DNA of 49,035 nucleotides. It comes from Coriobacteriia bacterium. GTDB lineage: Bacteria; Actinomycetota; Coriobacteriia; Anaerosomatales; PALSA-660. The number at the start of each line of letters is the position of its first letter. The first letter of the stretch is position 1. Below the pieces are notes generated by a model. The model saw only the letters and a program-made list of their open reading frames with translations. It was not told the origin of the DNA and did no database searches. Shown here piece by piece: positions 1,092 to 40,654 of this stretch. The position numbers and the translations under genes are program-made. The stretch spans positions 1 through 49,035 of the forward strand of contig JAHEXP010000006.1 in assembly GCA_023252055.1 (NCBI GenBank), written 5' to 3'.

Positions 1092-1510
1092 GGGCGGTCC
1101 ACCTCGCCTTCGTGCGTGCAGGCACCGTCCTCGATGAGGTGGTAGATGAGAGCGCCCTTGTCGCGCGTTGCCCGCTCGTAGTCCTGCGTGAAATAGAGGG
1201 CGTCGAACGGGCAGTTCTCCACGCACAACCCGCAGTACGTGCAGCGGCCGCTGTTCACGACGAACTCCACCGCCCGCTTCGGGTCGTCCGGGTCTTTCAC
1301 GAGCTTCAGCACGCGGTCGGGGCAGCCGACGATGCAGGTGTTGCATGCGCGGCATGCCGGAGCGCCCTCTTCGTTCACGTGCATCGCGATGAACGTCCGC
1401 GAGTTCGCCGGCGGGTTCTTGTGCTCGAACGGGTAGAGCTCGGTGACCGGACGCCCCAGCGCGTGGCGGAGGGTGATCCCCAGTCCCTTGAGAAGTCCCG
1501 ATCCGAACAT
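1088..1510 (-). CDS. nuoI: NADH-quinone oxidoreductase subunit I (2x[4Fe-4S])
   Basis: GLGITLRH...VTELYP; CRACNTCIVGCP and CTYCGLCVENCP ferredoxin motifs; GGAGG RBS. Confidence 0.93.
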   Translation of the reverse strand: MFGSGLLKGLGITLRHALGRPVTELYPFEHKNPPANSRTFIAMHVNEEGAPACRACNTCIVGCPDRVLKLVKDPDDPKRAVEFVVNSGRCTYCGLCVENCPFDALYFTQDYERATRDKGALIYHLIEDGACTHEGEVDRP

Positions 1511-1525
1511 GGTCACCCTCCTTTC

Positions 1526-25182: not shown

Positions 25183-25953
25183 CTACGCCTCGCCGAGATA
25201 CGTCTTGCGGACCTTCTCGTCGTGCAGGAGCTCCTTGCCCGGGCCCTGCAGCACGACGCTGCCGGTCTCGAGCACGTAGCCACGATCGGCGATCGCGAGT
25301 GCCATCGCCGCGTTCTGCTCGACGAGCAGGATCGTGATACCGGCCTTGTTGAGCGTCTCGATCGTCTCGAAGATCGTTTCGACGACGACAGGGGCGAGGC
25401 CCATGGAGGGCTCGTCGAGCATCAGCAGCTTCGGGTCCGCCATCATGCCGCGGCCCATCGCGAGCATCTGCTGCTCGCCGCCGGAGAGCGTGCCGCCCTT
25501 CTGCGCGCGACGCTCCCTCAGGCGCGGGAACAGCTCGTAGACGAGCTCCAGTGTGGACTTCACGCCCTCGGGGTCCTTCGTGCGCAGGAACGCGCCCATC
25601 CCGAGGTTCTCCTCGACCGTCATCCGCGGGAAGATGCGGCGGCCTTCGGGGACCTGGACGACGCGCTTGGCGGCGACGTCGTGGACCTTCATGCCGGAGA
25701 TCTTCTCACCCATGAACGTGATCTCGCCGACCTTGGGCGCCAGCAACCCGGAGATCGTCTTGAGCGTCGTCGACTTGCCGGCGCCGTTCGCCCCGATGAG
25801 GGTGACGATCTCGCCTTCACGGACGTCGACCGAGATGCCCTTGAGCGCCTCGATCGCGCCGTAGAACGTGTGCACGTTCTTCAACTGCAGCACGAGCGCG
25901 CCCGATCCGGTGACCGGGGCGACCATGGCGGTTGTGCTTGTGGTGTCGCTCAT
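25183..25953 (-). CDS. livF: Branched-chain amino acid ABC transporter ATPase LivF
   Basis: GANGAGKST, VPEGRRIF, LSGGEQQMLA, LDEPSMGLAP and LLVEQN. Confidence 0.93.
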   Translation of the reverse strand: MSDTTSTTAMVAPVTGSGALVLQLKNVHTFYGAIEALKGISVDVREGEIVTLIGANGAGKSTTLKTISGLLAPKVGEITFMGEKISGMKVHDVAAKRVVQVPEGRRIFPRMTVEENLGMGAFLRTKDPEGVKSTLELVYELFPRLRERRAQKGGTLSGGEQQMLAMGRGMMADPKLLMLDEPSMGLAPVVVETIFETIETLNKAGITILLVEQNAAMALAIADRGYVLETGSVVLQGPGKELLHDEKVRKTYLGEA

Positions 25954-25963
25954 CTGTTCCACC

Positions 25964-26746
25964 TCACGCCTGGGCCAACATGGCCTCGGCGCCCTTGCCC
26001 AGGTACGCCTCGATGACCTTCGGGTCCTTCTGGATCTCCGCCGGCAGGCCCTCGGCGATCTTCTCGCCGAAGTCGAGCACGTAGATGCGGTCAGCAATGT
26101 CCATGACGACCTTCATGTCGTGCTCGATGAGGAACACGGTGACGCCGCTCTCACGGATGCGTCCGATGAGTCGGGTCAGGTCGGCGGACTCCTGCGGGTT
26201 CATGCCTGCAGCAGGCTCGTCGAGCAGCAGCAGCTTGGGCTCGGTCGCCAGAGCTCGCGCGATCTCGAGACGGCGCTGCTGGCCGTAGGGCAGGTTCACC
26301 GCAAGCTCGTTGGCCTTGTCGGCCAGCCCGACGAAGCGCAGGTACTTGAGCGCCTCGTCCTCGGTCCGCTGCTCCTCGGCCTTGAACTTCTTCGTGCGCA
26401 GGATGGCCTGCAGCGGGCCCGCCTGACTGCGGCTGTGACGGCCGACCATGACGTTCTCGAGCGTCGTCATGTTGGCGAACAGCCGGATGTTCTGGAACGT
26501 ACGGGCCACGCCCATCGCGCAGATCTCGTGCGGCTTATGGCCTGCGACATCGGTGCCGTCGAACGACAGCTTGCCCTCGGTCGCCTGGTAGATGCCGGTC
26601 ATGATGTTGAAGAACGTCGTCTTGCCGGCACCGTTCGGGCCGATGAGGGCGACGATCTCGCCCTCTTCGATGTGCAGGTCGATGTCGCCGAGGGCGCGCA
26701 GGCCTCCGAACATCATCGTGACTTTCTCAGCTGAGAGTACGGACAT
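25964..26746 (-). CDS. livG: Branched-chain amino acid ABC transporter ATPase LivG
   Basis: GPNGAGKTT, ARTFQNIRLF, LPYGQQRRLEIARAL, LDEPAAGMN and IEHDM. Confidence 0.93.
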   Translation of the reverse strand: MSVLSAEKVTMMFGGLRALGDIDLHIEEGEIVALIGPNGAGKTTFFNIMTGIYQATEGKLSFDGTDVAGHKPHEICAMGVARTFQNIRLFANMTTLENVMVGRHSRSQAGPLQAILRTKKFKAEEQRTEDEALKYLRFVGLADKANELAVNLPYGQQRRLEIARALATEPKLLLLDEPAAGMNPQESADLTRLIGRIRESGVTVFLIEHDMKVVMDIADRIYVLDFGEKIAEGLPAEIQKDPKVIEAYLGKGAEAMLAQA

Positions 26747-26760
26747 GTCTTCGCTCCCCT

Positions 26761-27960
26761 CTACACATCGTCGGGTTCGGTATTGGCCCGGTTCTCTACA
26801 TCCCATTCCTGCATGTCTTCCTCGGCCAGGATGCGACCGTCCTCCGGCAGGAGCTCCCTGGCCCTACGCGAGCTTGGGATGATGCCCTGGGGCCGGACCG
26901 CCATCATCACGACCATGAGAAGGCCGAAGACGAGGAAGCGGTAGTTCGACATGAGGGACTGCATCTCGGCGGGCATCTTCAGGACACCGGCGACCGCGAG
27001 GCCCTGGATGAGGTCCGGCACGCCCTTGATGAGCAGCGCGCCCGCGATGACGCCCTTGATCGACCCCATGCCGCCGATGACGATGATGCAGACGACGAAC
27101 ACGGACTCCATGAACGTGAACGATTCAGGGCTGATGAACTGCTGCACGTAGGCGAAGGTGACGCCTGCGATACCGCCGGACAGCGCGCCCAGCGAGAACG
27201 CCCACAGCTTCTGGGTGCGGATGTTGATGCCGCACGCTTCGGCAGCGACCTCGTTCTCGCGCATCGCGACCCACGCGCGTCCCAGCCGCGAGTCGTCGAG
27301 GCGGCGGATCACGAAGATCGCGCCGAGGACGAGCATGACCACGATGACGTACCAGTACATGTTCGGGCCGAACTGGAAGAACCCGAGCGGCGTCTGGAAC
27401 CGGATGTTGTCCTGGAGCCACTGGGCGCCGAACGGAAGCGCCATGACCTGGTTGCCGTACGGCAGGCCCGAGGCGCCGTTGGAGAGCCCGAACAGGTTGT
27501 TGTTCAGACAGATGCGAACGATCTCCCCGAAGCCCAACGTCACGATGGCGAGGTAGTCGCCGCGCAGGCGCAGGACCGGGAAGCCGAGTGCGACGCCGGT
27601 GAGCGCTCCTGCGAGCGCCGCCGGTATCAACATCAGGAAGTAGGTCGCTCCACCGGTCCAGTGCGATACCGCCTGGCCGATGATCACGCCCGCGTACCCG
27701 CCCATCGCGTAGAACGCGATGTAGCCGAGGTCGAGCAGTCCCGCATACCCGACGACGATGTTGAGGCCCAAGGCCAGCAGCACCCAGATGCCCACGATGA
27801 CGAAGATGCGGACGATGAACTCCCAGCCGGTCGCGGACTGCACGAGGACGGGGACGAGCACGAGCACCGCCGCCAGGATCGAATACGCCACGATCGTCTT
27901 CGGCGGAAGCTTCTTGCGAGTCGGCGTCGGCATCACGGCCGCTGCTTTCGTGTCAGCCAT
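26761..27960 (-). CDS. livM: Branched-chain amino acid ABC transporter permease LivM
   Basis: GLNIVVGYAGLLDLGY, LRLRGDYLAIVTLGFGEI and SRLGRAWVAMRENE. Confidence 0.93.
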   Translation of the reverse strand: MADTKAAAVMPTPTRKKLPPKTIVAYSILAAVLVLVPVLVQSATGWEFIVRIFVIVGIWVLLALGLNIVVGYAGLLDLGYIAFYAMGGYAGVIIGQAVSHWTGGATYFLMLIPAALAGALTGVALGFPVLRLRGDYLAIVTLGFGEIVRICLNNNLFGLSNGASGLPYGNQVMALPFGAQWLQDNIRFQTPLGFFQFGPNMYWYVIVVMLVLGAIFVIRRLDDSRLGRAWVAMRENEVAAEACGINIRTQKLWAFSLGALSGGIAGVTFAYVQQFISPESFTFMESVFVVCIIVIGGMGSIKGVIAGALLIKGVPDLIQGLAVAGVLKMPAEMQSLMSNYRFLVFGLLMVVMMAVRPQGIIPSSRRARELLPEDGRILAEEDMQEWDVENRANTEPDDV

Positions 27961-27962
27961 GA

Positions 27963-28940
27963 CTACACCTTCTCCGCGACGGCTTCGCCGAGCAGACCGC
28001 CCGGTCGGAAGATCAGGACAAGAACGAGCACGATGAACGCGATGACGTCCTTGTAACCGGTCTCAAGGAAACCGCCCGCCAAGGACTCGACGATGCCGAG
28101 GAGGAAGCCTCCCAGCATCGCGCCGCGCAGGTTGCCGATACCGCCGACGACCGCTGCGGTGAACGACTTGATGCCCGGGATGAAGCCCATGTTGTACTTC
28201 ACCGAGCCGTAGTACATGCCGTTGAAGACGCCGGCGACAGCACCGAGGGCAGGGCCGATGAAGAAGGCCAGCGCGATGACGCTGTTGATGTCGACACCCA
28301 TGAGGCCGGCTGCCTCACGGTCCTGGGAAGTCGCTCGCATCGCACGACCGATGCGCGTGCGGGCGACGAAGGTGTCAAGGAAGAGGAGCAGGAGCAGCGA
28401 CGTCACCACGATGAACACCTGCATGGTGGTGATCTCCACCCCGCCGAACTTGAGCAGCGTGTGCGACGTGACGAAAGCGGTGCCGTCGGCCCGCGAGTAC
28501 GGAAGCTGCTTGCTGCTGACCCACAGGAGGACGGCGTTCTGCAGGAAGATCGAGACGCCGATGGCGGAGATCAGCGGTGCGAGGCGCGGTGCATGCCGCA
28601 GCGGGCGGTACGCGAACCGCTCGATGAGCACACCAAGGAGGCCGACGATCACCGCCGAGATGAGGAACGTGGCGGCCATGAGGGCCACGAAGCCGAGCAT
28701 GCCGCTGTTGAAGAACGTCTGGGCCGGCTTCATGAACGCGAGCGGTCCGGTGGCGACGGCGCCGTCGGACAGGACCTTCAAGACGCCGAGACCGACGTAA
28801 CCGCCGGCCATGAACAACTCGCTGTGCGCGAAGTTGATCATCAGCAGGATGCCGTAGACGAGGGTGTAGCCGAGTGCGACGAGCGCATACAGCCCACCCA
28901 AGGTGATTCCGTTGATGAGCTGTGAGAGGAGGTAACTCAA
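27963..28940 (-). CDS. livH: Branched-chain amino acid ABC transporter permease LivH
   Basis: QLINGITLGGLYALVALGYTLVYG..INFAH and KSFTAAVVGGIG; TTG start inferred. Confidence 0.92.
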   Translation of the reverse strand: MSYLLSQLINGITLGGLYALVALGYTLVYGILLMINFAHSELFMAGGYVGLGVLKVLSDGAVATGPLAFMKPAQTFFNSGMLGFVALMAATFLISAVIVGLLGVLIERFAYRPLRHAPRLAPLISAIGVSIFLQNAVLLWVSSKQLPYSRADGTAFVTSHTLLKFGGVEITTMQVFIVVTSLLLLLFLDTFVARTRIGRAMRATSQDREAAGLMGVDINSVIALAFFIGPALGAVAGVFNGMYYGSVKYNMGFIPGIKSFTAAVVGGIGNLRGAMLGGFLLGIVESLAGGFLETGYKDVIAFIVLVLVLIFRPGGLLGEAVAEKV

Positions 28941-29020
28941 GGTGAACGCTCCCGGTCGACTGGGGGCCGCGCGACGGCGAAGTGGCGGGACCCGGCGGGT
29001 CGCACGATGTGGGCAGCGGC

Positions 29021-29049
29021 CCGGGCGGACGCTTTGCGCGTCCGCCCGG
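29021..29049. terminator. Stem-loop between livK and livH
   Basis: CCGGGCGGACGC-N5-GCGTCCGCCCGG, 12-bp perfect stem; this position after a binding-protein gene is typical. Confidence 0.6.
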
Positions 29050-29102
29050 ACCTTGCTCATACCCTGACTAGGCAGGGTGGATTCGTGCTGTACAGCGGAT
29101 CC

Positions 29103-30308
29103 CTACTTGGAGACGGGAGCCCAAGCGCCATCGGCACCGACGGTGTAGACGGTGATCGCCTTGTTCGTGGTGTCGCCGTGGGCATCGAAGGAAACGGTGC
29201 CGGAAACGCCCTCGAAGTTGGTCTTCGCCACAGCGGCGATGATGGCCTTCTTGCCCTCGGTGGTCGTGACCTTGTCCGCACCCATGGACTTGGCGACCGA
29301 GACGATGGCCTTGATGATCGCGTTGGCGGCGTCGAAGGAGTACGCGTCGTACGCGGCGATCTCATCGCTGGGGTACGCGGCCTTGTAGGCGGCGATAAAG
29401 TCCTGGCCCTTGGGCATCTGAGCGGTGGGGAGGCCGACGGACGTCGCGAGGTCGCCCTTGGCGATCGCGGCACCGGCGAGCTTGATGTACTCGGGGTCGA
29501 ACAGACCGTCGCCGCCCATGAGCGGGACGTTCACGCCACCCTCCTTGAGCTGCTTGGAGAGCAGAGCGCCGGAGTTGTAGATACCGCCGTAGTAGACGAT
29601 ATCGATGCCGGCGGCCTTGATCTTGGTGACGAGGGACTTGAAGTCGGTGTCCTTGTCGGAGGTCTTCTCGCGACCGGCAACCGCGCCGCCGTCAGCGGCG
29701 AACTGCTTGCCCCACTCGTCGGCAAGGCCGACGCCGTACGGGGTCGAGTCGTCGACCACGAAAGCCTTCTTGAAGCCACCGGTCTTGAACGCGTAGTCCG
29801 CGCCGGCCGGGCCCTGGACCGCGTCGTTGGCGCAGACGCGGAAGTAGTTCGTCATGCCCATCTGGGTGAGGTCGACGGCGGTGTTGGCCGGCGAGACCTG
29901 CACGATGTTGGCCTGGTTGTAGATCTTGACCGCGACGCGGGTGACGCCGGAGTTCAGGTGACCCATGACGCCGACGAGGGTCGGGTTCGACGCGAACTGG
30001 GTCGCGACGTTGCCGCCGGTGGTCGGATCGCCCTTGTCGTCGCCCTCAACGCTGGCGATCGTCAGGCCGAGATCCTTGACTTCCTGCGAAGCGTTGGCCT
30101 GCGTGATGGCGAGGTTCGCACCACGGACCATGCCCTTACCAAGAGCGACTGCACCGTCGGTCAGCGGAGCGCCGATACCGATGGTGACCTTGACGGCGCC
30201 CGTGGCGCCGCCACCTGCTGAAGAACCACTCCCGCCGCAACCTGTGACGACCAGCGCCACAGCGGCGAGGAGGGCCACGATGGCCATATACTTCCTAGCC
30301 TTGCCCAT
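29103..30308 (-). CDS. livK: Branched-chain amino acid ABC transporter substrate-binding lipoprotein (LivK/LivJ family)
   Basis: Lipobox LVVTG|C; IGIGAPLT, DDKGDP, GHLNSG, YFRVCAND, YGVGLA and GGDG motifs. Confidence 0.9.
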   Translation of the reverse strand: MGKARKYMAIVALLAAVALVVTGCGGSGSSAGGGATGAVKVTIGIGAPLTDGAVALGKGMVRGANLAITQANASQEVKDLGLTIASVEGDDKGDPTTGGNVATQFASNPTLVGVMGHLNSGVTRVAVKIYNQANIVQVSPANTAVDLTQMGMTNYFRVCANDAVQGPAGADYAFKTGGFKKAFVVDDSTPYGVGLADEWGKQFAADGGAVAGREKTSDKDTDFKSLVTKIKAAGIDIVYYGGIYNSGALLSKQLKEGGVNVPLMGGDGLFDPEYIKLAGAAIAKGDLATSVGLPTAQMPKGQDFIAAYKAAYPSDEIAAYDAYSFDAANAIIKAIVSVAKSMGADKVTTTEGKKAIIAAVAKTNFEGVSGTVSFDAHGDTTNKAITVYTVGADGAWAPVSK

Positions 30309-30509
30309 TGTCATCCCTTTCCTCCGACTCGACTGCCTGATCATCTGGCCGGGGTATGCGTGACTCTCCCTGAATACTCCCGGCCTCAGGATTACGAGAG
30401 TGTAACAGAGCGGTACATGCGCAAACAACACGGATGAGGTGGGGTTCGCCCCCGCCGAAACCACGCATTTCCTGCATGTTTCGTCCCCGCGGACATCGCG
30501 GATCGCCGT

Positions 30510-30926
30510 CTATATGTAGTAGATCGCTTCCCGGCTCGCGTCGAGGCGGTCCTGACGGGACGCGAGGTCCGCCAAAGTGACGGAAGCGAGCAGGCCGTCG
30601 AGCGAACGGGCGACGTCCGCCCACATGTCGGAAACGACGGTGCCACTCGTGCGCGGGACGTCCATGGCCGAACCCTCGAGCGCCTGGACGACATCCGCCA
30701 CCGAGACCGAGCCTGCGGGCCGAGCCAGCGTGCAGCCTCCGCCAGCGCCCCGGCGGCAATCGAGCAGACCCCCTTGGGCCAGCGCGGTGAACTGCTGCTC
30801 GAGGAACCGGCGCGGCAGCGACAGGGAGTCCGCGAGCTCGCCGGCGGCCACAGCCGTGCCGGGGGGGCGCTGCGCCAGCGCCACGAGCCCGCGAAGCGCG
30901 TAGTCCAGCCGCTGGGAGACCCTCAT
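30510..30926 (-). CDS. Rrf2-family transcriptional regulator, CymR-like
   Basis: RLDYALRGL, FLEQ and RGAGGG wHTH motifs; no C-terminal Fe-S Cys triad; ends EAIYYI; ATGA-coupled to cysK. Confidence 0.88.
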   Translation of the reverse strand: MRVSQRLDYALRGLVALAQRPPGTAVAAGELADSLSLPRRFLEQQFTALAQGGLLDCRRGAGGGCTLARPAGSVSVADVVQALEGSAMDVPRTSGTVVSDMWADVARSLDGLLASVTLADLASRQDRLDASREAIYYI

Positions 30927-31882
30927 TGCCCGTAGCCTTCCCACAGCGGCGTCGAGAGGTAGCGCTCGCCGGTGGACGGCGCGACGGTCACGATCGCCTT
31001 GCCGGCCGCCTCGGGACGCGCGGCCAGCCGGAGTGCGGCCACAAGGTTCGCGCCGGACGAGATGCCGACGAAGATGCCCTCCTCAGCGGCCAGGCGCCGC
31101 GCTGCCGCGATGGCGGTGGGCGCGTCGACGCGCTCGACGCCGTCGAGTACGGAGAGATCGAGCGTCTTCGGGATGAAGTTCGCACCGATGCCCTGGATCC
31201 CGTGGGGCCCCGGGGTGAGGGGCTCACCCGCCAAAGCCTGGCCGATGATCGGAGACTCGGCTGGCTCGACGGCGATGGCGAGCGCGCCGGGCCGGATCTC
31301 TTTCAGGAATCGGCCGCCGCCGCTGATCGTCCCGCCGGTCCCCACTCCCGCGACGAACGCGAAGAGCTGCTCGTCGCCCAGCGCGGCATGGATCTCCGGG
31401 CCCGTCGTCGCGAAGTGGACCGCCGGGTTCGCCGGGTTGTCGAACTGCCCGGGCACAAAGGCGTCCGGGATCGTCGCCGCAATCTCGTCGGCCTTCGCGA
31501 CCGCGCCCTTCATGCCGAGCGCCCTGTCGGTCAGCACGAGCTCCGCCCCGAACGCCGCGAGAAGCTTGCGACGCTCCACCGACATCGACTCGGGCATCGT
31601 CAGGATGACCCGGTACCCGCGCGTGGCGCCGACGAGCGCCAAGGCGATACCGGTGTTGCCGCTGGTGGGCTCGACGATCACCGACTTCCCGCGCGTGATG
31701 AGGCCACGCTGCTCGGCGTCGTCGATCATCGCCTTGCCGATGCGGTCCTTGACGGAGCCGCCCGGGTTGCGCGACTCGAGCTTGATGTAGATCCGGCCCG
31801 GCAGGCCCTCGCCAAGATGGTCGAGGCGGACGAGATGCGTGCCGCCGATGGTGTCGAGAACGTTCGGAATGGGTGTGCTCAT
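30923..31882 (-). CDS. cysK: Cysteine synthase A (O-acetylserine sulfhydrylase)
   Basis: NPGGSVKDR (PLP Lys), EPTSGNTG, GVGTGGT, PHGIQGIGA and GERYLST. Confidence 0.96.
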   Translation of the reverse strand: MSTPIPNVLDTIGGTHLVRLDHLGEGLPGRIYIKLESRNPGGSVKDRIGKAMIDDAEQRGLITRGKSVIVEPTSGNTGIALALVGATRGYRVILTMPESMSVERRKLLAAFGAELVLTDRALGMKGAVAKADEIAATIPDAFVPGQFDNPANPAVHFATTGPEIHAALGDEQLFAFVAGVGTGGTISGGGRFLKEIRPGALAIAVEPAESPIIGQALAGEPLTPGPHGIQGIGANFIPKTLDLSVLDGVERVDAPTAIAAARRLAAEEGIFVGISSGANLVAALRLAARPEAAGKAIVTVAPSTGERYLSTPLWEGYGQ

Positions 31883-32047
31883 GGGTGGACCTCCGTGGTG
31901 CCGCTTCGGGGCCGCGCACGCCGGCCATGGCAGGAGTCTACCCTCGCGTGGCACCGGATTCACGCACTATTAGCATGCGCTTCATGCGATTCGCAGTTGC
32001 ACGGTGCGATACGGTACGCTGCATCGGTCGGAAGAAGGGGTTGCAGC

Positions 32048-32323
32048 GTGAACCTGTGGTTCTGGGGGTGGCTCATAGCGGCGGTCGCGATCGCTCTCGT
32101 CAGCGCGGTCATGCGCGACCGCGCCTCGGCGCCCTTCGCACTCGGTGCTGGTGTCGCAGCGGCCATGGATGCCGCGGGGCTCACCCCGTCCGCACAGTGG
32201 ATCGCCTTCGTGGGCGTCTCGGCTGCGGTCTTCATCGTGTTCAACCAAAGGCGCCACCGACGCCGTCACGATCGCCGCGGCCTCGGCCGTCACGGTGAGA
32301 GGCCCCCGCTCGACGAGTCGTGA
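32048..32323 (+). CDS. Small membrane protein resembling the N-terminal TM part of NfeD-like proteins
   Basis: GTG after AAGAAGGGG; WFWGWLIAAVA...PFALGAGVAAA...QWIAFVGVS followed by an Arg-rich tail; no OB-fold. Confidence 0.55.
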   Translation: MNLWFWGWLIAAVAIALVSAVMRDRASAPFALGAGVAAAMDAAGLTPSAQWIAFVGVSAAVFIVFNQRRHRRRHDRRGLGRHGERPPLDES

Positions 32324-32390
32324 CGCGATGTCGGCGCGGGCCGGGCGATCGCACGTGCTAGGTGCGCGCTCGCCGAGCCGCCCGGACGCT

Positions 32391-33056
32391 CTATCCCAGC
32401 GTCACGAACACCTCGCCGCCGCGAACGGCCACCGCGTACGTCTTCACGTCGGCGTTCGGGTGATCGGTCGTGCCGTCGCGCACGTCGTATCGCCAGCCGT
32501 GCCACGGACACATCAACGCGTAGCCGTCGAGGTAACCGTCCGCCAGCGGCGCGAAGGCGTGACGGCATACGTTCGACAGCGCGAAGAAGCGGCCGCCCAC
32601 ACGTGCGAGCGCAATGTCGCGCTTCCCGAGTTTCAGATGGCGGACCTCGCCGTCGCGCATGTCGCTCTCGGCCGCAACGCGAACGTCGACCGGGCCCTCG
32701 GGTGCCTCGACGACGCCGTGGAGGCTCGACCCGTCCTCGATGTCGGTGCGGATGAAGAGCCCGCACCAGCACTTCCGCATCGCTGCGAACTGCTCGACAT
32801 TGACCGCGATGCAGGGACACACGATCGCTGCATCCTGCTTCGGATCACCGGTGCGGAGGCGACACGGGCAGTAGATATCGCCGGTCTCGTCGAGGATCCC
32901 GATCTCCGCCTCGAGCGTCTCCGTGACGAACGCTTCATCGGTGTTGAACTTGTAGCCGAGCCGCTCGACGTACGGCGTCATGAACGTCTTCAGGTCGCCG
33001 ATCGTCACGTCCGGCCCGAAGCGGCGGCGGACCGGTTCCGGTTCGCCCACGGTCAC
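32391..33056 (-). CDS. Ferredoxin:thioredoxin reductase catalytic domain fused to a Rieske [2Fe-2S] domain
   Basis: FTR motifs YCPCR, VCPC and KCWCGLF, then Rieske CRH-x16-CPWH; single ORF; GTGA overlap with the glutaredoxin stop. Confidence 0.88.
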   Translation of the reverse strand: MTVGEPEPVRRRFGPDVTIGDLKTFMTPYVERLGYKFNTDEAFVTETLEAEIGILDETGDIYCPCRLRTGDPKQDAAIVCPCIAVNVEQFAAMRKCWCGLFIRTDIEDGSSLHGVVEAPEGPVDVRVAAESDMRDGEVRHLKLGKRDIALARVGGRFFALSNVCRHAFAPLADGYLDGYALMCPWHGWRYDVRDGTTDHPNADVKTYAVAVRGGEVFVTLG

Positions 33057-33301
33057 AGTCCAGCCAAACGGGAGATGCCCGCCTTGTCGAAGCCGACGAC
33101 GACGTCGTCTCCGGCGACGATGACCGGGAACGACGTACCGCCCGAGAGGCGCTTGACCTCTTCGATCGCGTCGGTGCGCTCCTGCCCGGTGAGCTTGTCG
33201 ACCTCGAGGACGTCGTAAGCCACGCCGCTATCGTCGAGGAACTTGCGCGCCTGGTGGCAGTACGGGCAGGTGGAGAGTGCGAACACCTTGATCGCTGGCA
33301 T
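33053..33301 (-). CDS. Glutaredoxin (NrdH/YruB-like)
   Basis: 82 aa; STCPYC active site, SFPVI cis-Pro loop and VVGFD. Confidence 0.9.
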   Translation of the reverse strand: MPAIKVFALSTCPYCHQARKFLDDSGVAYDVLEVDKLTGQERTDAIEEVKRLSGGTSFPVIVAGDDVVVGFDKAGISRLAGL

Positions 33302-33416
33302 GCTGCGGCTCCCGTTCATCGTGGTCGCTGTCGTGTGCGGGCGGGACGCCGTCTCACCGTCCCGCTGTGGTGTATGTTCCCAGGGACGGTGGCGCCGGGT
33401 CCAGGAACCGGGAGCG

Positions 33417-34007
33417 ATGACAAAGATCAGCGCGAAGAGGAGTTCGGCGGCCGCTGTGCCGGCCCGTCCCGCGGCGGTGCCGGGTGCTGCAGCTGCGCCG
33501 GTCAGAAGCGGTCCTCCTGCCCCCGTCCTCACCGCGGTCCTTGTCGTCTTCGTGCTGGTGGTGGGACTCGGCGGTTGGCTGCTGTACGGCGCGCTGAACC
33601 GCCCGCTGGCCACTCCGGCCGACCCGGCTCAGCTGAGGGCCCTGGACGCCCGCCTCCTCGAGATCGAGAACGCCGCGCGTCCCATCGCGACCCAGTTCAC
33701 CTCCGAGACGGCGACGTCGGCGATCGACATCGGCGCCTATCGCGCGCGGGCCGCCGCACTCCGGGATCTCGTCGATTCGACGAACGATCTAGCGGCCACC
33801 AGCCCGGATGCCCTTGAGATCCGCGACCTGATCCTCACGGGCGGGTCGCAGATCGCAGCGGGCATCGCGGACGCTCTCGATGCGGCGGCCAGCGACCAAG
33901 CCTCCGCCACACTGACCGCCGCGACCCGCGTCGACGAGGGACTGTCGAATCTCGCGGCGGCGCGGGCGAAACTCGACCTGCTTCTGGGCCGGACCAAGCC
34001 CGCATAG
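33417..34007 (+). CDS. Hypothetical membrane-anchored helical protein
   Basis: GGAG RBS before MTKISAK; basic/Ala-Pro N-terminus, one TM helix, Ala-rich helical ectodomain. Confidence 0.6.
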   Translation: MTKISAKRSSAAAVPARPAAVPGAAAAPVRSGPPAPVLTAVLVVFVLVVGLGGWLLYGALNRPLATPADPAQLRALDARLLEIENAARPIATQFTSETATSAIDIGAYRARAAALRDLVDSTNDLAATSPDALEIRDLILTGGSQIAAGIADALDAAASDQASATLTAATRVDEGLSNLAAARAKLDLLLGRTKPA

Positions 34008-34063
34008 CCGCGCCGTGCCCGCAGCGCCCCACGCCCTTCCGCCCCGGGTATAGACTCTCGACC

Positions 34064-34888
34064 ATGCGAAGAAGGCGGCGCGTCCTGTATATCGTCCTGT
34101 GGATCCTCACTATCGCGGTGGTCGCGGTGGTGGGCCTTCGACTGCTCACGCCTCGCGCGGTCGCTCCGGCGCGCGTCGCGGACCCGGCCGCCGCCAAGGC
34201 CGCCGGAGAAGCGGTCCTCGCCTCTCACGATGCGACGACACTGATCGTGGTCGCGCATCCCGATGACATCGAGTGGTGGGCCGGCGGCACGGCGGCTCTG
34301 CTCGCCCAACGCGGACGCGTCGTCCTCGTCGTCGGGACGTCCGGCGAGCGCGGCGACGGCGGGCTCGTGCCGGGCCTCGGAGCGGTCCGCGAACGCCTGC
34401 AGCGCGAGGGCGGCGCCGTCCTCGGCTACTCGGAGGTCATCTTCCTTCAGCATCCCGACGGCGGGCTCGGGCAGGCGACCGCGTTCCCATCGGAGGTCGC
34501 GAGCGCGATCGCCGCGGCTCGACCCGCGCGGATCATCACGTTCGATGTGGCCAAGGAGGCCGCAGGCTACCACCACGTCGACCACGAGGCCGCAGGGCGC
34601 GTCACCGCCGCAGCCGCGGAGGCGGTCGGCGGAGTGGAACTGCTCCTGATGCACACGAGCGCACCCGACACGATCATCGACTACGCGTCGGTCAAAGATG
34701 AGAAGGCCCGGGCGTTCGCGATCCTCACCAGTTATCACGACCTCACGCCGGTCGTCGGGCCGCTGAGTAACTGGTTCGGCTCGCTGGTGGGCGGACGAAC
34801 GATCACGTACGGCTCGAAGGCCTCGTACCCCGAGGTGGGTATCGAATACGGCGAGGTCTTCCGCCGCGTCGTCATCCCCGCGAAGTGA
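34064..34888 (+). CDS. PIG-L/LmbE-family deacetylase with N-terminal membrane anchor
   Basis: VAHPDD, TSGERG, HPDGGL and YHHVDH metal-binding motifs; RRRRR plus TM at the N-terminus; TAGACT 7 nt upstream of the ATG. Confidence 0.85.
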   Translation: MRRRRRVLYIVLWILTIAVVAVVGLRLLTPRAVAPARVADPAAAKAAGEAVLASHDATTLIVVAHPDDIEWWAGGTAALLAQRGRVVLVVGTSGERGDGGLVPGLGAVRERLQREGGAVLGYSEVIFLQHPDGGLGQATAFPSEVASAIAAARPARIITFDVAKEAAGYHHVDHEAAGRVTAAAAEAVGGVELLLMHTSAPDTIIDYASVKDEKARAFAILTSYHDLTPVVGPLSNWFGSLVGGRTITYGSKASYPEVGIEYGEVFRRVVIPAK

Positions 34889-34922
34889 AGGCATCAGGTA
34901 CCCGACGGAAGGTTGCTCCACG

Positions 34923-35777
34923 ATGTGCCAGTTCTGCGTGCAGCACGGCGACGGCAAGGCGTGGTACCTCGAGGCGAGCACCTACGCATACGACCTCGAC
35001 AGCGACCTGAAGCGCCGTGACTACCTCGTCGACTTCGTCCAGGACTTCGGGAAGAACCGCGAGTTCGCGCTGACCAACCTGAAGCGTCTGGAGCGGTTGC
35101 CCGCCCCGCTGCGCGATCTTGGCCGCAGCATCGCCACCCGGAACATGAAGGTCTCGCACTTCGGCCAGCCGGTCCCCATCGAGGAGTGCGAGCAGATCTT
35201 CGACCTCGCCACATCCGTTGTGCGCATCCCCTGCCCATGCCGCTACGAGTCCGGCTCCAAGGACGAGGGCTACTGTCTCGCCATCACGACGAAGCCGATC
35301 GACCGCTATCTCGACGAAGCGTTCAAAGACTACGAGGTGGGACCGGACACGACGAAGTTCCAGCGGCTGACGAAAGCGGAGGCGCTCGCCCTGTTGCGGC
35401 GGGCCGAGGACGAAGGGCTCATGCACTCCGTGTGGACCTTCGTGACTCCGTTCGTCGGCGCGATCTGCAACTGCAGCCTCGAGGCGGGCTGCATGGCGAT
35501 GCGCATCACGGTGGAGCACGAGACGCCGATCATGTTCAAGGGCCACCACATCGCGCACGCGGACCTCGACGCGTGCACGGGGTGCGCCGAGTGTGTCGAA
35601 CGCTGCCCGTTCGAGGCGATCGCGATCGGTCCGGGCCACAAGCGGGCGATCGTCGATGCCGAGAAGTGCTACGGCTGCGGCGTGTGTCGCTCCGCTTGCG
35701 AATACGACGCGCTGGCCCTCCAGGACCGGCCGGCTCCCGCGCCCGGGATCCTCACCAGCGCACGCGCGACCGCCTGA
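34923..35777 (+). CDS. Cys-rich Fe-S protein with C-terminal 2x[4Fe-4S] ferredoxin domain
   Basis: MCQFCVQHG, CPCR..YC and ICNC..GC motifs, then CTGCAECVERCP and CYGCGVCRSAC. Confidence 0.85.
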   Translation: MCQFCVQHGDGKAWYLEASTYAYDLDSDLKRRDYLVDFVQDFGKNREFALTNLKRLERLPAPLRDLGRSIATRNMKVSHFGQPVPIEECEQIFDLATSVVRIPCPCRYESGSKDEGYCLAITTKPIDRYLDEAFKDYEVGPDTTKFQRLTKAEALALLRRAEDEGLMHSVWTFVTPFVGAICNCSLEAGCMAMRITVEHETPIMFKGHHIAHADLDACTGCAECVERCPFEAIAIGPGHKRAIVDAEKCYGCGVCRSACEYDALALQDRPAPAPGILTSARATA

Positions 35778-35786
35778 CCGACCGCA

Positions 35787-38282
35787 TCAGCGTGGGCGCT
35801 CGAGCTCCAGCCTGACCGCACCCGGCGACAGGCGGCACAGCAGGTCCGCCGTCGCGGGATGGCAGGTGAGGAACACCACTTGCCGGCGCGTCGCGAGGTC
35901 CGCGATCGCGGCGGCGGCCGGCTCGAGCCGGTCCGGGCTGAAGTCGACGAGGATGTCGTCCATCAGCACGGGCAGGCCGCGCCCCGCGTCGCCAAGTTGC
36001 TCGATGAGGCCGAGGCGCAGCGCCAGATAGAGCTGTTCGGCGGTTCCCCGCGACAACTTGCCCGGCGAGGTCGCCGCCGAAGAAGCGTCGAAGACCTCGA
36101 TGGCGTCCTTGCCGAGCGGCACCGCGATGCGCTCGTAGCGTCCGTTCGTCATCTCCGCGAACGCCGCTTCGGCACGCTTCACGACCTCGGGCTGCCGATC
36201 GCGCTCGTAGCGCTCCTGGGCAAGCGACAGGAGTCTGGCGGCGACCGCCAGAACAGCGTAATCGCGCACGCCGTCAGCGATCCGCTCACCGACCGTCTCC
36301 TCCTCGAGGCGCAACTCGGACAGAGCGCTCTCGCGGTGCTCCGCCCCGAGGGAGGTGCGCAGCTCGGTGGCCTCCCGGGACAAGCGGTCGAACTCGTCGG
36401 AGGCGTCGCGCGCACAGCCGCGCGCCTCCGTCTCGAGCATGCGTGCGGCCTCGATGTCCCCATCTGTCACGCCCAGCGCGCGCAGGGCGGTGCTCGCGGC
36501 CTCGCTGGCGGCACCCGCCCTGCCGCGGTCATCTGCCGCGGTCAGCGATAGACGCTCCGCCGTGGCCAGCGCGTCCATTCGCACGGCCGCCGCCGCCCGT
36601 GCGTCCGCGACCTTGGCCGCCGCCCTTGTCATGAGTTCCGGTATCCGGTCCAGGCGCGTCTCGGTCGCGGGCTCGCCAAGAAGCGGACCGGCGACTGCGG
36701 CCACACGCTGCGCATAGGCCTCCGCGCTGTCACGGTCGGCTCCGACCTCGGCATGCAGGGCCGACCTCTCCCCGTCCGCCTTGCGAACCTCGCGTGCGGC
36801 CTGGTACCTCAGGTCGATCGCACGCGGCTCCTCCGAGCCGTCGCCGAGTCCGCGCGCGCGAACCCATTCAGACCAAGCGCCCACAGCGGACGCCAACCCG
36901 GCTTCGGCGGCGGCGAGTTCGCCGTCCACCGCGGGCATCCGGGATGCCGGGGCGCCCGTCGCGAGTCCGGTCGCCACACTCGTGATGAGCGAGAGGACGA
37001 CGCCGACAGCCGCGAGGAGGCCGGCGAAGACCGCCAGTACGGTCTGCCCCAGAACCAGACCGGCGACGAGGCCGGCGACACCGAGCCCGGCGACCGCGAA
37101 CCCGGGTATGGCCCACGGGCGGTTGCGGCCTGCGGCGCTGGAGGCACCGGTCGGATCCTCGGCACGAAGGCGCTCCCGCGCTTCCACCGCGGCCTCGACC
37201 CTGGTCCGTGCTTTGGTGAGGGCCTCTCGGTGGACGTCGATCTCGGCGGCGACTCCGGCGTCGGCGGCGGCGGCCAGCGCCGACGCCTCGCTCCAACCGG
37301 TATCGTCCAAAGCCGCACGCAGCCGAACGTCGACGGCGGCTGTCTTGGACTGGCCAGAGGAGAGCGACGCCATGCGCTCCCGGAAGCCCGAGAGCTCCGC
37401 GAACAGGGCATCGACGATGTCGGCCGCGGCCAACGCGGCCTCGTCCGCTCCCGCAGTGGCGGCCTTCTCACGCGCAGCTGAGGCCTCGGTCTCGATCCGC
37501 TCCGCGTCCTGCGTCAGCAACGTGGCCTCGCTCGTGAGGCGCGCCGCGTCCGCAACGGCGCGCGATCCGCGCTCGGCGGTCACCTGGGTATCGTTGCGCC
37601 GCGCGCGGGCGGCCTCCACGGCGCGCTCGAGTTCCTCGAGACGGGAGCCGTCGATGCGCAGCGTCTCAGTCTCGGCCTCGAGTGTCCGGATCTGGACTCG
37701 CAGCTCCTCGCGCCGCGCCTTCGCTCGGTTGAGCGCCGGAGTGGAGGCGCGCTTCGCCCACAACGCGTCCATCGCGGCTTCCAGCTTGCTGCGAACATCG
37801 ATCGGGCTCACCGTGAGCCCGGCTCCCGCAGCGTACAAACGTGCGATGAGGTCGTCGTCCTTGCCCTTGAGTTCCTCGATCTGCTGCATCTCTGCGAGAC
37901 CGAAACCGAACACGACCCGGTACGCGAGCCGGCTGACGCCGGCCGTGAGCTCTCCGACGAGGCCGTCGCGCTGGCGACCGCTCAACGTCCGTACGGTGAC
38001 GGGCCCGCCGTGCACGCCCTCGCGGCGCTCGACGACCCACTCGCCGTCGTCGTCAGCGAAGACGAGTCTGCCCTCGCGAGCGCCCGCCTCCGAGAGGTAC
38101 GGGGCCTCCTTGGCGTCCGCCCGCGTGGGAAATCCGTAGAGCACGTGGCGGACGAGCGCCATGAGCGAACTCTTGCCGGCCTCGTTCGGGCCGTGCACCA
38201 CGGTGAGGCCCGGCGCAAGGTCCCCGAGCATGCGGCCGTCGATCTTGCCGAACCTTCCCGCCTCGACGCGGACGAGTCTCAT
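35787..38282 (-). CDS. YhaN-like SMC/Rad50-type ATPase with internal TM hairpin
   Basis: Walker A GPNEAGKSS, long coiled coil, signature LSRGTAEQLYLALRL, Walker B MDDILVDF and LTCH. Confidence 0.88.
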   Translation of the reverse strand: MRLVRVEAGRFGKIDGRMLGDLAPGLTVVHGPNEAGKSSLMALVRHVLYGFPTRADAKEAPYLSEAGAREGRLVFADDDGEWVVERREGVHGGPVTVRTLSGRQRDGLVGELTAGVSRLAYRVVFGFGLAEMQQIEELKGKDDDLIARLYAAGAGLTVSPIDVRSKLEAAMDALWAKRASTPALNRAKARREELRVQIRTLEAETETLRIDGSRLEELERAVEAARARRNDTQVTAERGSRAVADAARLTSEATLLTQDAERIETEASAAREKAATAGADEAALAAADIVDALFAELSGFRERMASLSSGQSKTAAVDVRLRAALDDTGWSEASALAAAADAGVAAEIDVHREALTKARTRVEAAVEARERLRAEDPTGASSAAGRNRPWAIPGFAVAGLGVAGLVAGLVLGQTVLAVFAGLLAAVGVVLSLITSVATGLATGAPASRMPAVDGELAAAEAGLASAVGAWSEWVRARGLGDGSEEPRAIDLRYQAAREVRKADGERSALHAEVGADRDSAEAYAQRVAAVAGPLLGEPATETRLDRIPELMTRAAAKVADARAAAAVRMDALATAERLSLTAADDRGRAGAASEAASTALRALGVTDGDIEAARMLETEARGCARDASDEFDRLSREATELRTSLGAEHRESALSELRLEEETVGERIADGVRDYAVLAVAARLLSLAQERYERDRQPEVVKRAEAAFAEMTNGRYERIAVPLGKDAIEVFDASSAATSPGKLSRGTAEQLYLALRLGLIEQLGDAGRGLPVLMDDILVDFSPDRLEPAAAAIADLATRRQVVFLTCHPATADLLCRLSPGAVRLELERPR

Positions 38283-39526
38283 CACAGCTCGCCCTCCAAT
38301 CTGTCGAGGCACACGTCGCGTGCTCGTTCCACCAGCCCCGACACGCTCATGTCCGCCGGGTCGAGCGCGCCCAAGGAACCCTCGATCGGGCCCAGAGCCT
38401 CTGCGACGAGCCGCTCCATGAGGGAGGGATCCGTGAGGAGTTCGTCCGTGAGCCGTACGAGGTCGCCGGCGAAGTCCTGGGCGTCACGGAGTGCGGCGAT
38501 GTCCAGCGCGGCCGAGGTCCGGTCGCGCACACGGTCCACCCAGACCCAAGGCGCCGCGGCGAGTTGCTCGTCGCGCAGGTCGCGCACGAGGTCCTCGAGC
38601 ACCGTGCCGCGCACGAGCGGCGCGTGCGCTTCGGTGCGACCGGTGAGGTCGAGGCGGACTATCGCGGGCCTGTCCTCGGCCCTCGATCGAGCGCCGTCGC
38701 ACGCACCACGCATGGCCTCGCGGATATCGTCCAGCCCGGAGGCGGAGGACACATCGAGGGCGAGCCGTTCCCACACGATCGATGCGGTGGGCATGAAGCG
38801 CATCTCGGCATGCCCACCTGCGATCTCCACCAGGTAGCACCCGCGGACGCCGTCCTCTTTGGGGCTGCGGCCCTGAGGACACCCGGCATACACGATCGCC
38901 GGCGTTTCCGAGAGCACCTCGGGCTTGTGGATGTGACCGAGCGCCCAGTAGTCCATGCGCGCGGCTCGCAGATCCTCCATCGAAGCCGGCGCATAGTTGG
39001 CGACGCCTTCACGCCCGCCGACGTTCGTATGCAGGACACCGATGGCCACGCCGCCTGTGTCCGCTCGGGCGAAACCCTTCGCGAGATCGCGGGTCTCGGC
39101 AGCGCGCTCGTAGCCGCGGCCGTACAGCGTGCACAGGAGCTCGCCGTCGCGCTCCACGGGGATCGCCTCGACGTCGCGAGTTGAGAAGTAGTGCACGGAA
39201 GGCGGCAGCGCCAGTCCGGCCGACCAGCCGTCCGCGGGATCGTGGTTGCCCCGAGCGATGAACACCGGCACGCCCGCCTCCGACAGGCGGACGGCCTGCC
39301 TCTGGAAGAAGAGCTGCGCGGCCATGCTGCGGCTGTTGTCGTAGACGTCACCGGCGATGAGCAGGAAGTCGACGGCTTCTTCGATGCACAGCGTGGCGAT
39401 GCGCTCGAACGCCTCGAGAGTGGAAGCGACGAGCGCCGCACGGACGCGCGGATCCGACGCATCGACGCCCGCGAACGGAGCGTCGAGGTGCAGGTCGGCG
39501 GCGTGGATGAATCTCACAGGTCGCAT
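38282..39526 (-). CDS. YhaO-like Mre11/SbcD metallophosphoesterase (DNA repair exonuclease)
   Basis: HAADLHLD, AGDVYD, GNHD, LH and ALGHIH..GCPQGR motifs; true start at ATG 39526 within the long ORF 38282..41752. Confidence 0.9.
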   Translation of the reverse strand: MRPVRFIHAADLHLDAPFAGVDASDPRVRAALVASTLEAFERIATLCIEEAVDFLLIAGDVYDNSRSMAAQLFFQRQAVRLSEAGVPVFIARGNHDPADGWSAGLALPPSVHYFSTRDVEAIPVERDGELLCTLYGRGYERAAETRDLAKGFARADTGGVAIGVLHTNVGGREGVANYAPASMEDLRAARMDYWALGHIHKPEVLSETPAIVYAGCPQGRSPKEDGVRGCYLVEIAGGHAEMRFMPTASIVWERLALDVSSASGLDDIREAMRGACDGARSRAEDRPAIVRLDLTGRTEAHAPLVRGTVLEDLVRDLRDEQLAAAPWVWVDRVRDRTSAALDIAALRDAQDFAGDLVRLTDELLTDPSLMERLVAEALGPIEGSLGALDPADMSVSGLVERARDVCLDRLEGEL

Positions 39527-39600
39527 CCGGGGCCCCTCGCAAGGATGTGCGTGACGTCGAGCAGGCCCATCGTATCGCAGGGGTGTGACAGCGGCCCGGT

Positions 39601-40476
39601 CTACCGCGACGAGTTCTTGTGCAGGTCCTCGCGTGTCTCGTAGACGACACCCATCGTCCCCGGGCCCACGTGCAGTCCGATGGCGGGGCCGATCTGCTGG
39701 ATGCGAGGTCTGCGCCCGATACGCTCGCCCAGCAGTTTGGCCAGAACCTCCGCCTCGGGAGCGGCGAGGATGTGGTGGACGACGATGTCCGCGAGGCCGT
39801 GGGCCTCGGCGTCGGAGGCGACCATATCGGCTATCGTCTCGATGGCGCGGCGCTGCGTGCGGACCGAGCGCACGGTCGACGTCACGCCGTCGATGACGGT
39901 GAGTATCGGACGCACCTGCAACAAGGTCCCGAGTAGAGCCCGCGCGTTGCCGATCCGGCCGCCCATCCGCAGGTACTCCAGCGATGCAGGGGCGAACAGC
40001 CACCTCGTGCGCGAAGTGGTCTCCTGCGCTGCGGCCACCGCTTCCTCGAGGGTGCCACCCGCATCCGCCACGCGCGCGGCGGCGAGCACGGCGAACCCCT
40101 CCTCCATGCAGTTGGACAGCGAATCGACCACCGCGATCCCCCCGGAGGGGTGCCGCGCCAAGATCTGGTCGCGGGCCATGAGAGCGGTCTCGTACGTACC
40201 GCTCATCTTGGACGAGAGCAGGACGGCCACGACCTCGTCGCCCGCCGCCACCGGCTCCTCGAGCGCCTGGATCATCGATGCCACCGAAGGCTGGGACGAG
40301 GTGGGGAACTCCGAAGCGGCCAGCATCGCCTGGTAGAACTGCTCGGGGTCGATCTCGTCCTCGGTGCGCGTCACTCCGTCGAGTGTCGCGGAGAGTTGCA
40401 CGACACGTACGCCGAGGGCCTGGGCCTCGTCGGCGGGGATGTAGCTCGTCGAATCCGTGATGACGCGGACCGCCAT
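39601..40476 (-). CDS. DegV family fatty-acid-binding protein
   Basis: ITDSTS, PTSSQPS, SSKMSGTY, VDSLS, LEYLRMGGRIG and HVGPG. Confidence 0.93.
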   Translation of the reverse strand: MAVRVITDSTSYIPADEAQALGVRVVQLSATLDGVTRTEDEIDPEQFYQAMLAASEFPTSSQPSVASMIQALEEPVAAGDEVVAVLLSSKMSGTYETALMARDQILARHPSGGIAVVDSLSNCMEEGFAVLAAARVADAGGTLEEAVAAAQETTSRTRWLFAPASLEYLRMGGRIGNARALLGTLLQVRPILTVIDGVTSTVRSVRTQRRAIETIADMVASDAEAHGLADIVVHHILAAPEAEVLAKLLGERIGRRPRIQQIGPAIGLHVGPGTMGVVYETREDLHKNSSR

Positions 40477-40654
40477 GGGTGCGGCTCCTCCATCGTGTGG
40501 CCGACCGTGCTCCGGCATCGTACCGCAGCACGCTGCGCGCATGAACGTGCGACATGCCCGCGACTCGTGCGTGCGCGGGCGACGGGTATACGATAGTGGC
40601 AGCGGAGTATGCAGCCGCGGTCTGGAGCCGGACACCGAGCCACGAGGAGTGCGC

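Follow-up and report, generated by a model that had tools for sequence, protein, structure and literature searches.

The window analysed here, a stretch of 49,035 nucleotides of contig JAHEXP010000006.1 from a Coriobacteriia bacterium (assembly GCA_023252055.1), carries on its minus strand two overlapping genes, which encode a small glutaredoxin-like protein (hereafter the redoxin) and a fusion of a ferredoxin:thioredoxin reductase (FTR)-like catalytic domain with a Rieske [2Fe-2S] domain. We consider it fairly probable that this pair constitutes a [4Fe-4S] disulfide reductase similar to the ferredoxin disulfide reductase (FDR) of Methanosarcina, in which a Rieske centre admits the electrons in the place of rubredoxin, and that the substrate of this reductase is the glutaredoxin-like carrier encoded with it. 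Domain content, conservation, gene linkage and the predicted interface between the two proteins were computed directly; from them we infer that the clusters are bound, which way electrons flow, and what the donor and the targets may be. The coordinates of all features are collected in Table 1.

The first-pass annotation of this DNA had described a single open reading frame (ORF) of 221 codons with the motifs CPC, CPC and CWC, followed by CRH-x16-CPWH, and this is what the sequence contains, both domains lying above their Pfam cut-offs: FeThRed_B with 62.9 bits against a cut-off of 22 (E-value 3.4e-17; 64.6 bits in the genome search) and Rieske with 70 bits against 20.3 (E-value 1.6e-19). A second GTG, two codons 3' of the first, gives the 219-residue form that is database protein P0003, and the fusion and redoxin genes are tightly coupled with either start. 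In a HMMER alignment, residues C63, C65, C80, C82, C96, W97 and C98 map onto C55, C57, C74, C76, C85, H86 and C87 of the FTR catalytic chain of Synechocystis (FTRc, 1dj7), so that CWC indeed occupies the place of the CHC motif of FTR, as had been claimed; the spacing between the second and third motifs is 13 residues in the fusion protein and 8 in Synechocystis. None of the 120 aligned homologues departs from the six FTR cysteines, W97 or the four Rieske ligands; this alignment omits P0003, which is identical to the window protein, and the 197-residue forms P0016 and P0119. By its profile match and its six cysteines in three CxC motifs, the fusion protein belongs to the FTR catalytic-subunit superfamily (Pfam FeThRed_B).

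Within that superfamily it does not appear to be an FTR of the plant or cyanobacterial kind. All six cysteines align with the catalytic chains of the latter (1dj7, 2puk, 2pu9), and the mechanism, a [4Fe-4S] cluster beside a disulfide, is presumably the same. However, the similarity is weak (E-value 0.002-0.006), tryptophan replaces His86, which we take to be an essential residue of FTR, and the partner is glutaredoxin-like here, whereas FTR, itself reduced by a plant-type [2Fe-2S] ferredoxin, acts on thioredoxins f and m. The variable subunit (Pfam FeThRed_A) was found in none of five genomes, four of them 92-100% complete, in a search whose control, a Synechococcus genome, gave a match. Might the Rieske domain then be a structural stand-in for the variable subunit, or a dimerisation module, with ferredoxin feeding the [4Fe-4S] cluster directly? 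The missing variable subunit would fit such a role, as would the AlphaFold2 model of the fusion protein (mean predicted local distance difference test score, pLDDT, 94.1), whose predicted template-modelling score (pTM) of 0.85 suggests that the two domains are packed against each other in a fixed way. Yet a structural domain would not need its four cluster ligands, which are invariant, and members of this FTR subfamily occur with Rieske proteins in two forms, fused and encoded by separate genes (see below); we regard a purely structural Rieske domain as very improbable. The relay role that had been suggested for the domain would fit the invariant ligands. No solved chain spans both halves of the model, for which the query-normalised TM-score stays at or below 0.40.

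The first-pass annotation had cited the rubredoxin-like fusion of Methanosarcina FDR. The nearest characterised relative is the rubredoxin-fused FDR of Methanosarcina acetivorans (4tpu, chains deposited as 'Rubredoxin'), onto which the FTR-like domain superimposes in VIA-align with Z 9.8 and a root-mean-square deviation (rmsd) of 2.9 Å over 98 aligned residues. Like the fusion protein, it is a single polypeptide with a second, C-terminal iron centre and without a variable subunit, and it shares the two CPC motifs and an aromatic residue in place of the histidine. The two differ in their accessory centre, which is a rubredoxin in 4tpu and a Rieske [2Fe-2S] domain of about 100 residues here, and in their third motif, CYC versus CWC. 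Prakash et al. are said to have proposed in 2018 that the rubredoxin centre of FDR relays electrons from ferredoxin, and FDR reportedly reduces a glutaredoxin-like protein. Rubredoxin-type tails are present in 10 of the 12 FeThRed_B loci that were fetched from other Actinomycetota (L088-L099). In a catalytic-domain tree of 35 rows, which drew 14 rows from the 120 fusion sequences and 8 from these 12 FDR loci, a branch with 100/100 support separates the CWC group from the eight actinobacterial rubredoxin-type FDRs. By this tree, and having no rubredoxin tail, the fusion protein falls outside the rubredoxin-type FDR clade.

A second relative bears on the identity of the substrate. In the glutaredoxin/ferredoxin disulfide reductase fusion of Desulfotalea psychrophila (7pwe), an entry on which we found no paper, one chain joins the two families that adjoin as genes in the window: the redoxin profile matches its residues 5-83 (E-value 3.1e-16), and the FTR-like domain matches residues 84-187 by structure (Z 11.2, rmsd 3.1 Å, 101 aligned) and residues 76-177 by sequence (E-value 1e-08). 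In that protein the redoxin is fused, the third motif is CYC, and neither a Rieske nor a rubredoxin domain follows. It is very probable that the FTR-like domain has the redoxin of the window as its partner, a proposal of the first-pass annotation that is supported by the 7pwe fusion, by the adjacency of the two genes and by a predicted complex. A redoxin homologue lies immediately upstream of the fusion gene in all 52 reference-genome loci examined with the window proteins by tblastn. Prediction of the fusion-redoxin complex from both alignments gave a score of 0.72, compared with 0.01 for the best of three controls. The mark was attained for 58 of the 80 solved complexes and for 2 of the 110 mismatched pairs; contacts agreed by at least 83% between runs, and the partner had a pLDDT of at least 86. 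Expected error is lowest between C65 and C12 of the redoxin and between C65 and loop residues 57-59, and the predicted interface is confined to enzyme residues 43-116 and contains no Rieske residue. Among the 12 loci from other Actinomycetota, a simple motif scan placed a CGWC or CGHC redoxin gene immediately upstream of the FDR gene in three.

The redoxin itself matches Pfam Glutaredoxin with 54.7 bits against a cut-off of 22.9 (E-value 1.1e-14). It stays below the cut-off in all of its 16 NCBIfam matches, the best being the YruB family with 53.1 bits against 88.55, and it reaches none of the curated equivalog models Grx3, GRX_euk, NrdH, mycoredoxin and YruB. Its closest solved relatives are three entries named 'Glutaredoxin' (3ic4, 3nzn, 5cax) and the glutaredoxin part of 7pwe. 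A script extracted the redoxin ORF from 38 loci, missing 13 and returning one spurious extraction; the active-site motif is CPYC in 37 of the 38 and CPHC in one, and in 22 of them the redoxin stop overlaps the first possible fusion start by 4 nt. The GTGA overlap that had been claimed to couple the fusion gene to a CPYC glutaredoxin is present in the window as described. The genome of the window also contains a second glutaredoxin-fold gene (L084, contig C10 of G000, 1480..1734, plus strand), which encodes 84 residues with the motif WCGDC and is convergent with the gene of a 367-residue membrane protein that resembles, by sequence reading, an ACR3-type arsenite carrier.

How widespread is the fusion? 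Among 5.8 billion proteins, 626 homologues were detected at E-values up to 0.001, and the best 120 of these, 197-234 residues in length, all contain both Pfam domains. Among representatives at 50% identity, six proteins were found at E-values up to 1e-30, and only two full-length fusion clusters (P0123, P0124) and some fragments precede the plain Rieske proteins in the list; the fusion family is thus compact. In reference genomes, a complete or almost complete copy was located at 52 loci, whose titles name almost exclusively uncultured Coriobacteriia or other Actinomycetota, with a few Eubacteriales or unclassified metagenome assemblies. When 301 genomes of the class were searched, the fusion turned up in 129 of the 142 that belong to the window's order, across 24 families, and in none of the 158 from the other orders. 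Several of the 13 genomes of the order without it are incomplete. An artefact of assembly or gene calling, which had been raised as a way for the fusion to be unreal, finds no support, although a few relatives are contig-end fragments or frameshifted (G191, G243, G163). It is excluded by the uninterrupted ORF in the window, the full-length single ORFs in the 52 loci and the frequency of the fusion in the order, where several of the positive genomes consist of a single contig.

Clustering of ORFs across the 52 loci found no conserved third gene besides the redoxin, so we take the gene pair as the unit. Other neighbours are transport and housekeeping genes; named by sequence reading and not by family search, they include transporters and cobalamin adenosyltransferase-like, metallo-beta-lactamase (MBL) hydrolase-like and SPFH/NfeD-like genes; an ABC substrate-binding protein gene follows the pair in 27 loci. 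In 16 of the 52 loci, the window included, the pair is followed by genes for a cysteine synthase and an Rrf2 regulator. Conceivably, the FTR-like site acts on something other than the redoxin, or in addition to it, such as a small-molecule disulfide, persulfide or polysulfide, with the redoxin as a helper or as one client among others. The position just upstream of cysteine synthase and Rrf2 genes would suit such a substrate, as would a PIG-L deacetylase gene 0.8 kb away on the other strand, because the PIG-L family includes enzymes of low-molecular-weight thiols. We nevertheless judge this quite unlikely: the cysteine synthase and Rrf2 linkage is limited to those 16 loci, whereas the only universally linked gene is the redoxin, and both the 7pwe fusion and the predicted contact between C65 and C12 favour the redoxin itself. 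An ordinary TrxB, above its cut-off, and a thioredoxin are encoded side by side on another contig of the window's genome, and the Rieske-FTR module would therefore be an additional system.

What kind of centre is the Rieske domain? In sequence it comes closest to the ferredoxins of carbazole, naphthalene, toluene and biphenyl dioxygenases (E-value 1.7e-14 to 1e-7), and the Rieske half of the model superimposes on dioxygenase ferredoxins with Z 14-15 and rmsd 1.7-2.1 Å over 95-97 residues (2qpz: Z 15.1, rmsd 1.9 Å, 97 aligned). Solved members of that group (CarAc 1vck, naphthalene dioxygenase ferredoxin 2qpz, TodB 3dqy, BphA3 2e4p) share the pattern CxH-x16-CxxH at 26-32% identity and, like the fused domain, have no disulfide cysteine pair in the cluster loops, of the kind found in bc1-type Rieske proteins. 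Given these matches and the missing cysteine pair, the domain is likely to be of the low-potential type. The dioxygenase ferredoxins serve to pass electrons from a flavoprotein reductase to an oxygenase, whereas the fused domain is accompanied neither by a Reductase_C domain, in five genomes, nor by an oxygenase or a second Rieske domain in the window's genome (G000, 75% complete) or in the essentially complete genomes G003 and G021.

We envision a scenario whereby the redoxin and fusion genes are transcribed as one operon and their products make up a disulfide reductase system of the FTR/FDR type that works with iron-sulfur centres. An external one-electron donor, in these anaerobes most likely a ferredoxin or a flavoprotein, would reduce the Rieske centre (C164, H166, C183, H186), which would stand in for the rubredoxin centre of Methanosarcina FDR and would pass electrons singly to the FTR-like [4Fe-4S] cluster (C63, C80, C82, C96) beside the redox pair C65/C98. 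C65 would then attack the C12-C15 disulfide of the redoxin, and the transient mixed disulfide so formed would be resolved by the second electron. The reduced redoxin might in turn reduce cellular targets, with the whole system operating alongside the normal pair of NADPH thioredoxin reductase and thioredoxin. The first-pass annotation had called the module a candidate self-contained one, and in this it erred, because nothing in the pair can draw electrons from a metabolite and no gene for a donor is conserved next to it.

A variant of the fusion gene points to the same nucleophile. In L085 (G165:C13) and L086 (G185:C9), from two genomes of one genus, an in-frame TGA stands exactly at the codon of C65, and past it the frame remains open over some 150 more codons and closely similar up to the gene's end. 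A hairpin, ACCGGCGUGUACGCCG, common to both loci, lies 13 nt downstream of the TGA, and over it GVYAED replaces the otherwise conserved GDPKED; SelB is above its cut-off in both genomes. Read together, these features suggest that the TGA probably encodes selenocysteine at the nucleophilic position. The equivalent of C65 in FTR, Cys57, is presumably the exposed nucleophile, and exchange of cysteine and selenocysteine is a classic mark of a redox-active residue. A further candidate, a TGA 'inside' the fusion gene of G263, was rejected since the stop lies upstream of the gene. Separately, rubredoxin-tailed FDR genes with a CYC motif are common in other Actinomycetota; the 301-genome search gave FeThRed_B matches in 45 genomes, and 20 of the 46 FeThRed_B matches listed contain one in-frame TGA. 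In locus L095 the ORF ends right after the 'CY' of the third motif, which suggests selenocysteine at the second redox cysteine.

The CWC branch is tied to Rieske modules in two gene arrangements. When metagenomes were scanned with two stand-alone CWC proteins, 14 loci came back. One holds a fusion accompanied by a CPYC redoxin (L101), another a solitary gene within AT-rich DNA (L100), and twelve are of a split type (L102-L113), in which Rieske, glutaredoxin-like, FTR-like (CWC) and Rieske genes form a cassette of four. The CWC domain of the cassette is 40-46% identical to that of the window (E-value 1e-21 to 1e-32), and the window catalytic domain and the split CWC proteins form one clade with 100/100 support, apart from the rubredoxin-type FDRs. 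The downstream Rieske gene is present in 9 of the 12 split loci, the contigs of the other three being too short to show it; of the 11 loci with room for an upstream CPWC redoxin gene, 10 have one and L108 does not; and all 9 with room have a Rieske gene further upstream. The upstream Rieske protein of L102-L113 carries CxHxGC...CPCH, with a bc1-like cysteine pair, and the downstream one carries CGHxxAPL...CPLH and an insertion of 20-30 residues. Cassette and pair thus agree in having a glutaredoxin-like gene directly upstream and a Rieske module directly downstream of the CWC domain. They differ in that the downstream Rieske of the cassette is a separate gene and its redoxin has CPWC, whereas in the window the Rieske domain is fused, the redoxin has CPYC, and no second CxHxGC...CPCH Rieske gene lies upstream of the redoxin, the fused Rieske domain being the only one in the genome. 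It is tempting to view the fusion as a condensed cassette, but the trees lend this idea no support. In a Rieske tree whose 'free' rows had been picked for resembling the query, both cassette groups exclude the fused domain (branch support 97/87), its BLAST scores are tied between cassette Rieske A and Rieske B, and the catalytic tree leaves the order of fused and split forms unsettled.

Several observations weigh against a Rieske-fed reductase. Rieske ferredoxins have potentials of about -150 mV and CPYC redoxins of about -200 to -250 mV, and the active-site couple of FTR lies much lower, so reduction would run uphill unless the centre is unusually low in potential or there is a downstream pull. 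The position of Y190, which is nearly invariant in the 120-sequence alignment, is presumably that of the potential-raising tyrosine of bc1-type Rieske proteins. Across the 52 loci, neither a reductase gene nor a ferredoxin gene is a conserved neighbour of the pair, and a Reductase_C domain, the usual reductase of Rieske ferredoxins, was found in none of the five genomes. What the complex score picks up may be resemblance to solved FTR-thioredoxin complexes and to 7pwe, and not a signal that this pair has of its own. As to the selenocysteine form, ACCGGCGUGUACGCCG does not fold with a better energy than shuffled sequences do (z -0.07 and -0.64), and the reading concerns two genomes of one genus. 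Finally, our literature search found no biochemistry for any member of the fusion family.

Alternatively, electrons might flow in the opposite direction, from the redoxin dithiol or the thiol pool through the FTR-like site and the Rieske centre to an acceptor, such that the system makes disulfides or reports the thiol redox state. The potentials, Y190 and the lack of a linked low-potential donor gene would all fit, as would the upstream Rieske protein of the cassette, whose CxHxGC...CPCH motif is typical of higher-potential Rieske proteins. The first-pass annotation had reasoned likewise that the Rieske centre is too positive and that the module may run oxidatively; this argument is weakened by the likeness of the domain to low-potential ferredoxins, although about -150 mV still lies above the CPYC couple. 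We consider the reverse direction unlikely. The fused Rieske domain has no cysteine pair and resembles the low-potential ferredoxin type. The nucleophile is probably selenocysteine in L085 and L086, and selenocysteine at the nucleophile is typical of reductive thiol enzymes. To our knowledge, every characterised relative among FTR and FDR is a reductase. The hosts, moreover, appear to be anaerobic with a reducing cytoplasm, as far as can be gathered from the groundwater metagenome source and the lack of any other Rieske protein.

A broader proposal would be that the CWC branch, with its fused or flanking Rieske modules, is a distinct thiol/disulfide class that exchanges single electrons with mid-potential Rieske centres and not with low-potential ferredoxin. 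We put this forward as a speculation that is improbable at present. If it were true, the coupling of dithiols to Rieske centres would be new to thioredoxin and glutaredoxin systems, and it could serve disulfide formation, redox sensing or, in the two-Rieske cassette, the splitting of dithiol electrons between a higher-potential and a lower-potential Rieske centre.

Table 1. Gene pair, flanking signals and neighbouring genes in the window
Feature	Position	Strand	Basis
FTR-like::Rieske fusion gene, 221 aa plus stop, GTG start	32391..33056	minus	ORF and Pfam
FeThRed_B (FTR catalytic/FDR-like) domain, residues 22-108	32733..32993	minus	Pfam
CPC motif, C63-P-C65	32862..32870	minus	
CPC motif, C80-P-C82	32811..32819	minus	
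CWC motif, C96-W-C98	32763..32771	minus	
Rieske [2Fe-2S] domain, residues 125-207	32436..32684	minus	Pfam
Rieske ligand motif, C164-R-H166	32559..32567	minus	
Rieske ligand motif, C183-P-W-H186, 16 residues after the first	32499..32510	minus	
Glutaredoxin-like gene, 82 aa, C12-P-Y-C15 (codons 33257..33268)	33053..33301	minus	Pfam
GTGA overlap of redoxin TGA stop and fusion GTG start	33053..33056	minus	sequence
Terminator-like hairpin with T-rich tail, about 130 nt past the fusion stop	32250..32264	minus	1 site versus 0.5 expected in shuffles
Conserved 16-nt element GGGAACATACACCACA, 65-80 nt ahead of the redoxin start	33366..33381	minus	upstream-region alignment
Cysteine synthase-like pyridoxal phosphate enzyme gene (30923..31963), overlapping Rrf2-family regulator gene (30510..30944)	30510..31963	minus	
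Branched-chain amino acid ABC transporter operon	25183..30464		
Small hydrophobic ORF	32090..32323	plus	
PIG-L family deacetylase gene	34064..34888	plus	
Cys-rich protein gene, 284 aa	34923..35777	plus	
AAA_27/SMC-like ATPase gene (841 aa), overlapping gene of calcineurin-like phosphoesterase-domain protein (1156 aa)	35787..41752	minus	

The hairpin beyond the fusion gene weakly suggests an end of the two-gene transcript. Ahead of the redoxin gene, the element GGGAACATACACCACA is near-identical in the window and three close relatives (L002, L003, L004) among the nine upstream regions aligned; it sits in an otherwise diverged spacer, occurs once in the window and is a possible promoter or operator. 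A scan for sigma-70-type promoters returned no site, and Rfam gave no match over 30000..36000 at E-values up to 0.1. The RNA run from the same sample yielded one 61-nt piece of an RNA contig at about 90% identity, probably from a relative, and the DNA only fragmentary contigs.

As to the neighbouring genes of the window, the cysteine synthase-like and Rrf2 genes are followed by the branched-chain amino acid transporter operon. The small hydrophobic ORF, which is convergent with the fusion gene and matches no Pfam family, is found at the same place in 8 of the 52 loci by tblastn and resembles the N-terminal membrane part of the NfeD-like proteins that occupy this place in other relatives. The Cys-rich protein, encoded next to the PIG-L gene, combines an N-terminal CQFC and more CxC motifs with two [4Fe-4S] ferredoxin motifs at its C-terminus; its identity is 71-76% in the four close relatives L002-L004 and L006, and Pfam assigns a family to its ferredoxin part only. 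With a similar-looking neighbour of an FDR gene in L099 only the ferredoxin motifs align, and we claim no link. The overlapping ATPase and phosphoesterase genes resemble SbcCD, with an unusually long nuclease subunit.

What would a Rieske-wired disulfide reductase mean for these organisms? The first-pass annotation knew of no characterised FTR-Rieske fusion, and we likewise found no published description: no FTR or FDR with a Rieske domain appeared in the literature searched, although supplements and surveys of FTR-like proteins may list such forms. Database names follow the Rieske part ('nitrite reductase/ring-hydroxylating ferredoxin subunit', 'Rieske 2Fe-2S domain-containing protein') and so hide the probable function of the fusion proteins. 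The gene pair is part of a wider Rieske-linked branch of the FTR family, and we found no publication on this branch or on the four-gene cassette. A Rieske-wired reductase raises the thermodynamic question of how a Rieske centre can drive disulfide reduction, or whether the system runs in reverse. The thioredoxin/glutaredoxin network is known to be fed from NAD(P)H via flavoenzymes or from low-potential ferredoxin via FTR, FDR and flavin enzymes. A Rieske-wired disulfide reductase would add a further electron entry into this network, by means of a gene pair that, at 129 of 142 genomes searched, is a near-core feature of a whole order of uncultured subsurface Actinomycetota.

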